From Candidatus Bathyarchaeota archaeon (GTDB lineage Archaea > Thermoproteota > Bathyarchaeia > Bathyarchaeales > Bathycorpusculaceae), in the NCBI GenBank assembly GCA_963806535.1, contig CAWDYC010000004.1, positions 288,001-352,000 on the forward strand: a DNA stretch of 64,000 bases, read 5' to 3'. The position numbers were made by a program, and so were the translations under genes. The notes beneath the pieces were generated by a model. It was given only the letters and a program-made list of their open reading frames with translations. It was not told where the DNA came from and did no database searches. Positions 13,300 to 29,487 of the stretch are shown piece by piece. Each line of letters begins with the position of its first letter. Position 1 is the stretch's first letter.

Positions 13300-17448
<4,149 letters not shown>

Positions 17449-17465: not shown

Positions 17466-17903
17466 CTGACAACCGGCATAAAAATCACCTGCGACGAAAT
17501 GCGTTACATTGCTTTGTTTGAAAGCATAAGCGGCGCCAGCGTGAAAGACTGCATTGTTGACGAAATAGAGCAACGAGCAATATTCATCGTAAACCAAGGC
17601 CAAGTTGGCGTTGCAATAGGAAAAGGCGGCAGAAACATCCACACACTTGAACGAATGACAGGCAAAAAACACGAAATCATCGAATACAGCGAAGACCCAG
17701 TAACATTCATGAAAAACGCCCTGAAACCAGCAACAGTCAGAGAAATACGCGTCACAGAAAGAACTGATGGCAAAAAAATGGCAGTCATAACAGTCAATCC
17801 CAAAGACAAGGGCGTCGCAATAGGTAAGAACGGCAAAAACGCTGAACGTCTGCGATTTTTAGCAAAACGGTATTTCGATATTCAGAACGTAAGCATCACC
17901 TAA
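17466..17903 (+). CDS. nusA: Archaeal NusA (KH domains); possible CTG start at 17466 after GGAGG
   Basis: Two GVAIGKxGxN KH motifs; synteny with rpl30e. Confidence 0.92.
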   Translation: MTTGIKITCDEMRYIALFESISGASVKDCIVDEIEQRAIFIVNQGQVGVAIGKGGRNIHTLERMTGKKHEIIEYSEDPVTFMKNALKPATVREIRVTERTDGKKMAVITVNPKDKGVAIGKNGKNAERLRFLAKRYFDIQNVSIT

Positions 17904-21246: not shown

Positions 21247-21881
21247 TTACTCGTTTTCTTCTTCTTGTTCTATTGGCTCTTCTTCCTCGGCTTCTTCTTT
21301 TGGTTCAGCAGTTTCTGCTTTTTGTGCATCACTCGACAAAATCATCGTTATCAAGTGCTTTCTGGTCTACTTCTGCCCTTGTTCTCCAATCCAGAAACAA
21401 CAGCCCATTATCATCTTGCCCAAGGTAGCCGTAGCGAATGTAGCGTTCAATGTTTAAGCCGATTTTCCAGTTAGGCATTTTTTCGCTGAGCAGTTTCTCA
21501 ACGTCTTTTCTTGGTGCTTGCCCTTTCTTGCTAATTATATATGAGATTGTTATGGCTAAGCCTGCTAAATCGTCAATGCGCCAACCCATCAACTTATCCT
21601 TTGTCTGCAAGTCGCCGCGCAAGAGCAACATAGAATCTTGCTTTATCAAGCTCTTCTATCGTGGGTTTTTCTGGGGTTTTTTCTTCTTCAAAAATTGTTT
21701 TAACCTGCAAATCCAGCGGTTTCAGGTAGTCATCAAGTAGATCGAGCACTTTAGGGTAGTCTGAACCTAATGCTTTGTGCAGTTCCCAGCCCTTAACTCC
21801 TGGTTTCTGATGTCGCTTGTAGAAAAGCATCTGAGTTGCCTTTTTGATTTTGCTGCCGTAAACACCTTTTTTCTTGCTCAA
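21247..21881 (-). CDS. Kite-like tandem winged-helix protein (ScpB/Nse1/Nse3-MAGE-like) with acidic tail; frameshifted
   Basis: Two WH-like halves ending YGYLGQDDNGLLFLDWRTRAEV; TTGA overlap with the upstream gene. Confidence 0.6.
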
Positions 21882-22706
21882 TCTAATTCGCCTCTTTTCC
21901 ATTTCTGCCAGTCTTCATATGAGATGGCGATTGGAACTGATGTTGACTGCTGAGTTAGTAGCTCTGTTCTGGGTTGGCTGAAAGGTTTTATGAATACCTC
22001 TTCCTCTAACCTGTCAATCTCCAGTGTTGCGTAGCCATAGGTTACAAGAAAACTTGTTAGGAATGCTCTTTGAACTGTTTGTTCATAGGTGTCAGCACCA
22101 ATAAAGTCCCAGTAATGAATTTTGCCATCTGTTCCTTTATTTGCAACACAGGCTTTCAGTTCCTGCCAGTAAATATTTAATTCGTCAGAAAATTCTTTAT
22201 CACTTAGAACACGCTGCTTTATCAATTCCTCTCTGCTTGCAAAAGCATTTGAAACCTCGATTGCTTCAAAATCTTTCCATCTTTCATTAAGAGGAGATAA
22301 CGCTTCCCAGTAAAGCAGTCCCTGTGCTAAAGTGTTAAGGCTTATTTGTTCAAACTCGATCAGTGGGTTCCAGGCTTTAAGAAATGCATTAACCATTTCT
22401 TGTTTGCCGATTTGGAGGATTTTTTCTTCCAAGAAGAAAAGGGTCAGTGTAGAGCAGAGATGATCGTTGTTTAACCCATTCGCTTTGAATTTTGATAACA
22501 GTGGCTAAATGGTGGAGCGCTTCTGCGTCAAGTCTTAACTCGTCAGGGTTTTGCCAATGAGGAAAATATTCTCTTACAACTTTGATGATTTCATCAATGT
22601 TTAATGTGAAAGGGTCAACCGTGTGGTTTTCGATGGCGATGCACATTTCAATTATGCGTTCAAGCCTTTCCTTGCCCAATGTCTTAGCATGTTTTGCTAC
22701 CTGCAT
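21878..22706 (-). CDS. Kleisin (ScpA-like); frameshift near 22430
   Basis: N-terminal VDPFTLNIDEII...LATVIKIQS; C-terminal WH TVQRAFLTSFLVTYGYATLE...EVFI. Confidence 0.7.
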
Positions 22707-24634
22707 TACGCCACAACCTCACTTACAACTGATTTTCCTTCAATATTTTGAACTGTAATCACGTTAGCGTCTTGCTGGGCAAAGGTGATTTGGCTTGGAG
22801 TGATGACGACGTATTGGACGTTTGCATCTTTAATTGTGGAAAGAAGAACTTTCGCAATCATTTCTCGGTTTTTAGGGTCCATATGAATGTCATATTCATC
22901 TACTGCTCGGAATGGGGAGCGAACGTGCTGTTGCAGTGCTAAGAGAAAACTCATGGTTGCTGTAGTTCGTTCGCCGCCACTTTGGGTGTAAGCGTCAAGA
23001 GCCACTGGTTTTCCGCCTTTGAATCCGACAAATATTTCTAAACCAGCTGTTTCAATGTCTTGAGCGTTTGAAAGTTTCACTTCGCCAGTTGCTAAAGTTT
23101 GGCTCATAATCCGCTGGTACTCCACATTTACGCGGTCAAGCAGGTTCTCCATGACTGTTCGCCATGATTGCATTCGGTTTTGACTTCTTCAAGGGTTTTC
23201 TCGCGGTTTTCAGCCACAACCTGTGCTTTCTCTTTCAGCTCCAGATAAAGTTTCGAGTAAGATTCGTATTGGCGTTCGATGTCTTCTGAAACATTTACAA
23301 GTGCTGCTAAATGGCCGTCTGTTAAGCGGATTTCGTCTTGGATGTCAGGAGCGCTTTTTAAAACTGCGATTCTTTCACCGGACAGCCATTGCTTTTTGAG
23401 TTGTTGCCGTCAGATTTTCTTGTGCTTCTTTCAGCGATTTCTCAATATCTTTTATGGTCAACGATGGCGTTTGCCCGCTTATACTCAAGCATGGCAAGAA
23501 TTACACTGTTTATCCAACACTTCGTCTGTAACCTTGTCAGATGAATCTTCCAAGTTGAGCATTTTTGCTTGATTTTCTTTAATTTGCTCGTTTGTTTTGG
23601 AAACTTGTTGCTCTGAATTTTTGAGCATTTCTTTGAGGTTTTCAGTTCTGAAGAGTTTAAGTTGGTTTTTGCTGCCTTGAATTGCCTGCTGTAAAACCTC
23701 TGCTTCTTCAAGCAATTGTCCAATGAGTGATTGTATTGATTGGTTTTGTGCGATTTCATTTTCAAGATTTAGGCGTTCATCAAAAGCTGTTCGGGTTTCT
23801 TTTTTGAGTGTTTCCCGCTCATTTTGTTGACTGTTCAGCTTGTTGGTTACGGCTATTTTTTCCTCTTCAATTTTGCGTCAGTGCATCTTGGTTTTTGTTT
23901 AGGTTGGCTTGTAAGCCTTTAACTATGGTTTCGCGTTTTTCAACTTCTGCCCAAGATAGTTCACGTTCTAAAAATCGACGTTTAATCTGAAGTTGCTTTT
24001 TCTCTTGGTATTTTTCGTATTGTTCACGCCAATAGTTGAGGGTTTGCTGGGCTTGCTCTAAAAGTTTGCCGACGGATTCTTCTTGCGTTAGAATGCGCAT
24101 TAATTTTGTTTTTGCTTGCAGGACGTTTTCGCGGAAAGGTTCTAAGCCGACAGCTGCTTCAACAATGCGCAGTTTTTCTATGTTGCTAAGAACAGTGAAT
24201 TGTTCAACCATGTTTTGATGCATGATAATTAGCATGTTGTCTGGGTCAACGCCGAACCTGCCAAGTAACCGTTCAACATCCTGTTTGCCGACGGCTCGGT
24301 TTTCCAGTTCAAACCCATATTTGCCGTCTCGGCGCAATACCCGAGTTAGGAAAAGTTGGTCTTTTGAGTATTTTGGTACTGGACGTTTGTTTCCCTGTTT
24401 GCTGTTGTCTAAAATTAGTGTTACTCTTGCTTGGTCATGTCCCCATCGGATTAAATCGCTGAGTTTCCTTGAGCGTTCCGTGTATGATTGACCTAAACCG
24501 ACGGAAATGGCTAAAAGCAAAGAGGATTTTCCTGCGCCGTTAGGTCCACCAATTACGTTTACGCCTTGCTTAAACGGCACTCTAGCGTATTCATAACTCA
24601 TGAAATTTTCAAGTATAACCTCTTGAATTAACAT
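22706..24634 (-). CDS. Short (~640 aa) SMC-family ATPase, SMC5/6-like or coalescin-like; multiple frameshifts
   Basis: LENFMSY, GPNGAGKSS, Q-loop MHQN, coiled coil, QSGGERTTATMSFLLALQ, PFRAVDEYDIHMDPKNR, QYVVITP. Confidence 0.85.
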
Positions 24635-25290: not shown

Positions 25291-25874
25291 CTAGTTATCA
25301 GCTGAAGTGACTAGTGTTGCAACATAACACTTCAAATCTTCATTATCAACAAAAGAAATTATCTTCAATACCTGAGCTTTCAAGTGTATCCATAAATGTG
25401 TTAAGTGGAAAAGCCTTCTTCAACCCAGTCACCACAACCCTGCCGCCTAGCTTTGGCAACTCGCGTCTAACTCTTTTAGCGTTTCAACAGGTTTGGGCAT
25501 GTTTTGAAGCACTGTAAAGGCGAAAACAAAATCAAAAAAAGCATTTTTAAACGGCAAGTGGTCAGCGTCAGCCTGCAAAACCAAAACATTCCCTAAATCA
25601 TTTCGCTTGCTCTTTGGCTTTTAGCAGTAGTTTGTCGTGAAATGTCAACGCCAACAACCATATCGGATTGAGCTGCTACTTCTTTGAAAAACAAGCCTGA
25701 ACCACAACCAACATCCAAAACCACGCCACCTGCAACCTCTACATTTTTCAATGCCGCTTTGTATTTTGCCTTCTGTTCCTCAGCGTACCGATCTTCGTAC
25801 ATTTCAGCTGTCAAATCGTAACGTTGCATGACTCTGCGCTTGTCTTTCCAACCTGCCAAACGGTGTTCCTTCAA
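25291..25874 (-). CDS. Class I SAM-dependent methyltransferase (frameshifted)
   Basis: VLDVGCGSG, VGVDIS, downstream ADADHLPF in a shifted frame. Confidence 0.8.
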
Positions 25875-25922
25875 GAAATCTTATGTACCCAAGCTCTGAC
25901 TAAAATAGTTGGCTGAAAACAA

Positions 25923-26721
25923 TTGCAACAATCAAACAAACTCTCGGTGCTGACCTCTACCAACATTAGCGGAAGCTGCAACGCTTGATTGAGAAATCTT
26001 TTGTCCAAAGAAGAACTCTCATCGTTGCAGGCACATGCCACGTGCATTACGTTGGCAGAGCAAGCTCAACTCTTGAACTTGGCGAACGCATCCTAATCAT
26101 CAAGTCTGACGGGTCGCTTCTTGTTCACCGCCCAGTCGGCTATGAACCAGTCAATTGGCAACCTGCAGGCAGCGTTTTCCATGTCCAAGTCAAAGACGAA
26201 GAGCTGGAGGTTCATGGAATTCGGCAAAAGCCACATGAAAGCGTTCGCGTCACATTCGAAAACATCTATATGGTCTCTGCCCTCAACTTGTCAGATTCAG
26301 GAGATTTTCTTTTACACGCAAGCGAAGACGACATGCATCGAGCCATTCTTCTTAAACCTGAACTTCTCGAAGAAGGCTTCAAACCGATTAGCTGGGAGAA
26401 AAAAGTTGAGCCCGGCTTCGTAGACATTTATGGCGAAGACAAAAACGGCAAACTCGTCATTGTTGAAGTTAAACGAAAAACTGCTTCAAAAGAGGCTGCG
26501 TCTGCAATTGGCAAAGTATATTGAACCTATCAAAGCCAAAGTTAACCGAGAAGTCCGTGCTGTGCTGGTTGCCCCTAGCCTTGCTAAAGATGTTCAGAGA
26601 CTGCTGGTTACACTTGGGCTTGGAGTTTAAGGCGCTTGACCCGAAAACCTGTGCTGAAGTTCTTAAGAAAACTGAAAACTCAAAGCTGGAGTCATTCTTC
26701 AAAGAAAAAGACTCGATTTAG
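25923..26721 (+). CDS. nucS: Mismatch-specific endonuclease NucS/EndoMS (frameshifted)
   Basis: CHVHYVGRASS, IKSDGSLLVH, EPVNWQP, GFVDIYGED..IVEVKR. Confidence 0.92.
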
Positions 26722-28295: not shown

Positions 28296-29487
28296 TTGCC
28301 ATCACATCAAAGCGTGTTCAAAGACGAAGGCAAGCTTGACATAAACTACATTCCGCAGCAGCTGCCTCACAGAGAAAAAGAACATCGCCTGCTAATGGAG
28401 TTCTTCAGCTTCATTACTCGCTACCCAGAGCGGATGTCTCAACGCGTTATCATAACTGGCGATGTAGGCACAGGAAAAACAGTTCTTGACCCAACATTTC
28501 GGAGCCAACATCACATCAGAAGCTAACAAACGAGCCATAAAATTTCGTTATGTGCATGTTAACTGCCGAGAGTATCGAGGTAGTCTCCAGCCGATTTTGC
28601 ATCATGCTGTAACCGTTTTCCGTCCAAAGTATCCAGCACGTGGCTATTCTGCAGACGAAGTTCTATCAACATTAATGCAGGTTCTAGATGAAGAAAACGC
28701 TTTCATGGTGTTGACCCTTGACGAGTTTGATAGTCTGATAGAAAATGAAGGTTCGGATGCTGTTTACAAACTGACGCGCCTGCAGGAAATGCGCCAAGGC
28801 AAACCTCAAAGGTTGTCATTTATTTTTATTATGCGTGATTTGAAATCGCTTGAAAAGTTGGATGATAGCGCACGAAGCACTCTTCAACGTAGCATTATAC
28901 GTTTAGAGCGTTATGGCAAACCTCAGCTTGTTGACATCTTGAACCAGCGTGTTTCTATGGCTTTTGAATTGGGAGCAGTTGAGGAAGATGTTGTTGATTT
29001 GATTGCTGAGTTGGCTTTCAGTGAGACGGGAAATGCCCGTTTTGGAATTGAGTTGTTGTGGCGCTCTGGGAAATATGCTGATGCCGAACAAGTTGGAATG
29101 GTTGGAGCTGAATGTGTTCGCTTGGCAGTATCCAACATTGTTCCGGGCGTTCGACGTAGTGAGTTAGCGGGGCTTGCTTTGCATGAAAAAATGTTTTTGC
29201 TTGCAGTAGCCCGTTATTTCAAAGAAAATGAAGAAGCATACGCTTTATTGTCTGAAATTGAAAAAACCTACGCAGTCATCTGCGAAGAAATGGATGAGCA
29301 GCCCAACAGCCACACGCAAATATATAATTATGCTCAGTTTCTTTCTTCAATGAAAATTTTGAAGCTAGAGGTTGCAAGTGAAGCTACAAGAGGTAGGTCT
29401 ACAAGGGTTTCTCTGCTTTCGATTCCGGCGAATGAGTTGGAAAAAGAATTAAGCGCTTCGTTGGAACAGGAAAAAAGAATCAGGTGA
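28296..29487 (+). CDS. cdc6: Orc1/Cdc6 family AAA+ initiator (frameshift near 28490)
   Basis: LDINYIPQQLPHRE, GDVGTGKT, YVHVNC, LDEFD, GNARFGIELL, C-terminal WH. Confidence 0.9.

Follow-up and report, generated by a model that had tools for sequence, protein, structure and literature searches.

A short SMC5/6-related protein, probably hinge-less, encoded with an Nse4-like kleisin and a kite protein in an archaeal operon

Whether Smc5/6 is mainly a DNA clamp or mainly a loop extruder is an open question. It is raised here by a three-gene operon from a Bathyarchaeota genome, in which an SMC5/6-related ATPase that probably has no hinge is encoded together with a kleisin and a kite protein. Given that SMC-kleisin complexes are defined in reviews by their dimerization through the hinge (PMC10586767), we ask what the three proteins are, whether a tip dimerization domain is present, and what such a complex might do on DNA.

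The operon and its reading frames

The window (the whole stretch of 64,000 nucleotides analysed) contains three coupled genes on the minus strand, read from 24634 to 21247. The first (22706..24634) encodes the ATPase, consisting of an ABC head with all motifs and a short antiparallel arm, the second (21878..22706) a kleisin with an Nse4-like C-terminal winged helix, and the third (21247..21881) a kite protein with a tandem winged helix, an acidic tail and a TTG start. The smc stop codon (22708-22706) and the kleisin ATG (at 22706) overlap as TAATG (22704..22708, minus strand), and the kite start and kleisin stop overlap as TTGA (21878..21881, minus strand); both overlaps are kept in the related loci L001-L003. 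This layout had been described in the initial annotation, and it is present in the sequence together with all the motifs quoted there (QSGGERTTATMSFLLALQ, SPFRAVDEYDIHMDPKNR, QYVVITP and LDWRTRAEV). In intact relatives, the products measure 641 aa (SMC), 275 aa (kleisin) and about 210 aa (kite). A search of species genomes returned 529 stretches in which a relative is encoded. Among the best 80 of these 529, nearly all titled Bathyarchaeia, open reading frame matches were obtained for 77, and the SMC is encoded by a single unbroken frame (628-679 aa) in 69 of the 77 and by a split one in eight.

In the present assembly, none of the three genes is intact: single-base indels interrupt each of them, eight in total within 3.4 kb. 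Five fall in smc (four insertions, near 23877, 23505, 23460 and 23387, and one deletion, near 23177), one in the kleisin gene (near 22433) and two in the kite gene (near 21623 and 21354). Such a density could mean that this particular copy is decaying into a cluster of pseudogenes, irrespective of the role of the family in other genomes, and the unbroken state of canonical smc and rad50 in the same assembly, as well as the lack of the operon in some genomes of the same genus, would agree with decay. We nevertheless regard it as very improbable. The breaks are all single-base and seven of the eight are insertions. Neighboring genes are affected alike, with five single-base indels in a methyltransferase gene, six in nucS, two in the essential rpoA and one in cdc6, and the methyltransferase and nucS genes exceed the operon in indels per kilobase. 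Moreover, the codon differences to the relative L001 are mostly synonymous (103 versus 39 non-synonymous in smc, 49 versus 17 in the kleisin gene), with no stops in either gene. Since the neighbors are broken in the same manner and the differences are mostly synonymous and stop-free, the eight breaks are likely assembly errors. The contigs of relatives, from four sequencing runs, are free of the operon indels wherever they cover them; a run of the same strain was looked for and none was found. The broken rpoA, methyltransferase, nucS and cdc6 genes (13668-17137, 25330-26720 and 28296-29487 of the window) mark this part of the assembly as error-rich.

Family assignment of the three proteins

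The initial annotation had considered the SMC head to be of the SMC5/6 rather than the condensin type, and this reading is well supported. The ten best sequence matches of the SMC in the PDB are SMC5 or SMC6 in every case. In the head tree, for which the N- and C-terminal lobes were aligned, the short forms, the hinged archaeal forms and eukaryotic SMC5/6 constitute one clan (100/98), from which canonical Smc (98/94) and Rad50-like proteins (100/99) stand apart; for unnamed proteins, the labels "eukaryotic" and "canonical" were assigned by length and motifs. The FastTree version contained 85 of 89 rows, four having been lost to motif detection, and the IQ-TREE version 50 of these 85. The short TACK clade on its own is weakly supported (87/68). 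Within this tree, which contained no named ClsN or Sph, the head falls outside the Rad50-like rows, and the NCBIfam ASRP model gave no match to the SMC at E 1e-25. The score against TIGR02169 is 174 bits, versus a cut-off of 729. Comparison of structures, using the SMC model, did not separate Smc5/6 from canonical Smc. On sequence evidence, then, the SMC belongs with eukaryotic SMC5/SMC6, apart from canonical Smc. In an alignment of 98 short-form rows, the residues of the Walker A, R-loop, Q-loop, signature, Walker B and D-loop motifs are at least 90% conserved, and the same applies to those of the neck and joint.

The second protein had been described as ScpA-like. That it is a kleisin stands, its kind being Nse4-like instead: the Pfam Nse4_C model scores above cut-off on the window piece of the kleisin and matches 39 of 43 family members, and the PDB matches are EID3 and yeast Nse4, with only a weak match to ScpA. 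For the third protein, an Nse1/Nse3/MAGE-type kite unlike ScpB had been proposed, with which our results agree. Its predicted model best fits Nse1/Nse3/MAGE structures (7dg2_A, 7qcd_E and 5wy5_B), and family members match Pfam MAGE (4/51) and SMC_Nse1 (3/51). By sequence, it matched no solved structure and not the ScpB of the same genome, and no RING was found, the C-terminal end being the acidic tail. The kite is Nse1/3-like and neither ScpB- nor MukE-like.

The source genome has a single locus with smc, kleisin and kite genes of this SMC5/6-like kind. The separate canonical smc-scpA-scpB, which the initial annotation had suggested looking for, was found on contig C7, with a hinged Smc of 1183 aa, and mre11-rad50 lies on C4.

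The arm tip and its history

Neither a hinge nor a zinc hook had been recognized in the SMC at first reading, and our searches agree. In the model of an intact relative (mean pLDDT 88.6), a helix spanning residues 165-317 is followed by a loop (318-329) and a returning helix (330-417), beyond which come a break (418-450) and a last helix up to residue 511. The predicted arm is half-length, with 153 residues (about 23 nm), and is capped by the 12-residue loop (23647..23682, minus strand), which joins the two long helices at the place of a hinge or hook and has the lowest confidence of the model (pLDDT 55-63). The predicted break in the returning helix (23281..23379, minus strand) probably represents the SMC joint, as judged by its position. 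The top Foldseek match, 5xei, is the structure of an Smc head that includes the coiled coil and joint; together with the model, it indicates that the joint and about 90 arm residues above it are retained. The CxxC motif of a hook occurs in none of the 98 short SMC rows. Pfam SMC_hinge found nothing on the short arm, while it scored above cut-off in all three long hinged siblings used as a positive control; this model also misses real hinges, namely that of a 1128-aa canonical Smc (family f22) and those of most eukaryotic SMC5/6 tested. Taking length, alignment and predicted model together, the short SMC likely has no hinge.

Several other SMC-like proteins were observed along the way. The 1128-aa canonical Smc of family f22, encoded with ScpB nearby (G025:C1:287593-290934 and G009:C2:485371-488712), has no detectable Pfam SMC_hinge in 16 of 16 genomes and could have a divergent hinge or another kind of tip. 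P0135 (781 aa) groups by its head with canonical Smc in the tree, is not matched by the Pfam hinge model, and is possibly another shortened SMC. Rad50-like proteins are encoded beside Mre11-sized genes at L145:2488-4764, L148:2641-4914 and L120:8980-11340, those of L145 and L148 (757-758 aa) having no CxxC motif.

Even without a hinge, the short arms might dimerize at or near their tips through the coiled coil, by RecN-like contacts or by zipping into a rod, and the resulting small closed ring could translocate or extrude loops in short steps, much as other SMC-kleisin complexes do. The retained joint and adjoining arm would suit such a ring. RecN dimerizes through apical helices with neither hinge nor hook (PMC4255302), and in B. 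subtilis Smc the hinge can be replaced by a Rad50 zinc hook with function retained, so the kind of tip is exchangeable (PMC5344682). Furthermore, no canonical Smc, no ScpB and no second SMC-kleisin-kite set turned up in three genomes, the single-contig and 97% complete G007 and G015 and the 92% complete G056, where the short complex may thus have to fold the chromosome; both are present in G009 and G025. The tip itself argues the other way. Besides its low model confidence, it is the least conserved region of the SMC (0.11-0.23, against 0.5-0.78 for the head; 98 rows) and the most gapped and length-variable one, and the stretch from W228 to position 420 ranges almost continuously between 101 and 234 residues. 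Hinged SMC arms, in contrast, have preferred lengths about 100 residues apart, and intermediate lengths are non-functional in hinged Smc (PMC5344682). This drift in length, set against the stepped hinged arms, suggests that the tips of the short arms need not dock in register, and we consider the small closed ring unlikely.

The initial annotation had further related the operon to the ancestral state of Smc5/6, a view that a hinged version of the same operon makes unlikely. Relatives of P0060 have an SMC of 980-984 aa, whose hinge is above the Pfam cut-off in the three tested, and are followed by a kleisin and a kite of the same kind in all four loci (of six) that extend downstream. This hinge-bearing sibling operon is carried by metagenome contigs (L163:5001-9239, L165 and L167) and is a naturally occurring control for the form without a hinge. 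With moderate support (94/88), P0060 branches as the sister of the short TACK clade. In Jordarchaeia, proteins of 823-841 aa also carry SMC_hinge, and since the short P0084 and P0091 branch with these, a second loss of the hinge is suggested. Given that the operon exists with a hinge, that hinged forms branch around the short clade, and that a hinge is also present in canonical Smc and eukaryotic SMC5/6, hinge loss is the simplest reading, and the short form is likely secondary rather than the Smc5/6 ancestor. The hinged forms would consequently be better models of that ancestor, the common TACK form being likely derived.

A further tip type may have arisen within the short clade. The Bathyarchaeia family f75 has a paralog, 1016-1067 aa long (L125:1657-4860 in G473, L127, L128, L131 and L133; proteins P0015, P0020 and P0027), with a CxxCG motif near its midpoint. 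In the tree, it nests inside the short clade beside the short copy of f75 (99/90), and a tree keeping it outside was rejected (p-AU 2.7e-5, 33 rows; the group was named after seeing the tree). The CxxCG aligns with Rad50-type hooks at 96% probability, the windows having been centered on the CxxC, and the Pfam hook model gave no match. The three larger loci that were inspected have no kleisin or kite gene beside the paralog, and in three of the paralog-bearing genomes the short operon is retained at another place. A hook-like paralog of this kind would be the natural counterpart of the engineered Smc-zinc-hook chimera.

Distribution, possible action and comparison with known systems

Of the 401 Thermoproteota genomes covered by the search, 200 yielded the short SMC and 197 the kite, the latter in nearly every case as a single match. 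Those members that have a name belong to Korarchaeota, Thermoprotei, Nitrososphaeria and Culexmicrobium. Of 20 loci chosen for diversity, 19 preserve the smc-kleisin-kite order and the 20th is cut by a contig end, and the SMC measures 578-699 aa across these. The operon was not found in families f15 (0/61) and f23 (0/23) and in several others, nor in 4 of 11 genomes of the same genus or in the single-contig genome G158.

In view of its relatives, the complex could be a dedicated sensor of plasmids or viruses, as the initial annotation had suggested among other roles, which either clamps and silences small circular DNA like human Smc5/6 or feeds an unlinked effector like Wadjet and Lamassu. Restriction of foreign DNA is common to Smc5/6, Wadjet and Lamassu, and LmuB is of a similar short length, with about 650 aa and arms of about 20 nm (PMC10586767). 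The operon is also a compact coupled unit that occurs in both orientations between the same flanks: of 80 loci, 38 are co-oriented with nusA or nucS, 17 are inverted as in the window and 25 are uninformative (no inverted repeat flanking the operon was found). Its patchy loss among close relatives would fit defense as well. The gene context, however, lends no support to silencing. For most of the diverse loci, the scan covered one flanking gene per side (56 proteins in total, at E 1e-25), and the neighbors are varied, mostly housekeeping genes, about half of the proteins being without a match and no nuclease being shared. At these strict thresholds, no JetD (whose absence had been noted initially), LmuA or other effector, and no JetA/JetB or LmuC partner, was seen among them, and PADLOC gave no match for the kleisin or the kite. 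In addition, the operon occurs in one copy per genome, is all-or-none by family in most families, and shows about 35-45% identity across classes. In the family of the window, it adjoins rpoA-rpl30e-nusA (nusA at 17499) and a methyltransferase gene with nucS (about 25900-26700). On balance, a dedicated defense role appears distinctly improbable.

Two other neighbors were observed in distant genomes. An Lhr-type ATP-dependent helicase is encoded just downstream on the opposite strand in three of them (L118:1067-3964, L121:770-3628 and L123:8052-10925), and in L123 flap endonuclease 1 lies directly upstream of the operon.

Over both the small closed ring and the defense sensor, we prefer to view the operon product as an ATP-cycled clamp of heads, kleisin and kite on chromosomal DNA, acting in replication or repair, with a probability of roughly 0.55. 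The three proteins would likely assemble as a 2:1:2 complex without a tip dimerization domain. By analogy with eukaryotic Smc5/6, the kleisin would connect one SMC, at its neck, to the other, at its cap, and carry a kite dimer, the heads would be engaged by ATP, and DNA would be gripped among heads, necks and kite. With no hinge, the arms would be at most loosely zipped there would be no covalently closable SMC-kleisin ring, and processive loop extrusion would be unlikely. In the yeast Smc5/6 clamp, the arms are open and DNA is held by Nse4, Nse1/3, the necks and the engaged heads (PMC9191643). We favor the clamp because the short complex retains these parts and has lost the one that closes the ring.

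A broader view, which we put forward tentatively and at slightly less than even odds, is that half of the sampled Thermoproteota lineages run a complete SMC-kleisin-kite machine without any tip dimerization domain, a natural ring-less Smc5/6 core and in some the sole SMC-kleisin complex, and that within the clade the tip went from hinge to nothing to a newly gained zinc hook. If so, the head-kleisin-kite clamp alone would carry the ancestral function of Smc5/6 and ring closure would be dispensable. With the hinged sibling operon as control, such a natural three-protein complex would make the choice between clamp and extruder testable in a small recombinant system. The statement that SMC complexes are absent from Thermoproteota (PMC12153180) needs to be qualified as well.

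The operon is a member of a published class. SMC5/6-related archaeal SMCs, those of Bathyarchaeota included, were defined by Yoshinaga and Inagaki in 2021, with both SMC types together in 44 of 80 cases (PMC8665677), and van Hooff et al. (2025) described three-gene operons with an Nse4-like kleisin and an Nse1/3-like kite (bioRxiv 10.1101/2024.01.07.573240). Our operon shares with this class an SMC5/6-type SMC, an Nse4-related kleisin and an Nse1/3-like kite in one operon, the occurrence in TACK, and the frequent company of canonical Smc-ScpAB. No mention of a short length or missing hinge was found in the main text of either paper, and the word "hinge" does not occur in the supplement of PMC8665677. 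In the literature covered, to which most subscription journals do not belong, the missing hinge, the hinged sibling operon and the hook-like paralog are unmentioned for the SMC5/6-like archaeal family, and the hinge-less architecture is apparently undescribed. Related literature on SMC proteins includes PMC11344861, PMC11840125 and PMC12647877.

With eukaryotic Smc5/6-Nse1-Nse3-Nse4, the operon has in common the head sequence, the C-terminal domain of the kleisin and the fold of the kite. It differs in having one SMC gene and one kite gene, so that there are no Smc5-Smc6 or Nse1-Nse3 heterodimers, an arm of about 153-180 residues against a mode of 272, no hinge, an acidic-tailed kite without RING, and no further conserved gene. 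Canonical Smc-ScpA-ScpB has the same gene order, head fold and joint, but forms a separate clade at a separate locus, with a hinged Smc of about 1180 aa versus 641 aa and a ScpB unmatched by the kite. RecN, Rad50, ClsN/Sph (ASRP) and Lamassu LmuB likewise have short arms without an SMC hinge (PMC9389158, PMC10586767 and PMC4255302). A zinc hook, absent from the short SMC, is present in Rad50, in most ASRPs and in many LmuB, and neither Rad50 nor RecN has a kleisin or kite partner (PMC10586767 and PMC4255302). In contrast to Wadjet and Lamassu, no JetD nuclease or LmuA effector is linked to the operon among the scanned neighbors. Finally, the hinge-less SMCs of marine Actinomycetes have an SMC head and a coiled coil but lack both the hinge and a CxxC hook; they derive from canonical bacterial Smc, with no kleisin or kite partners named in that source, and are an independent precedent for the loss of the hinge (PMC12153180).
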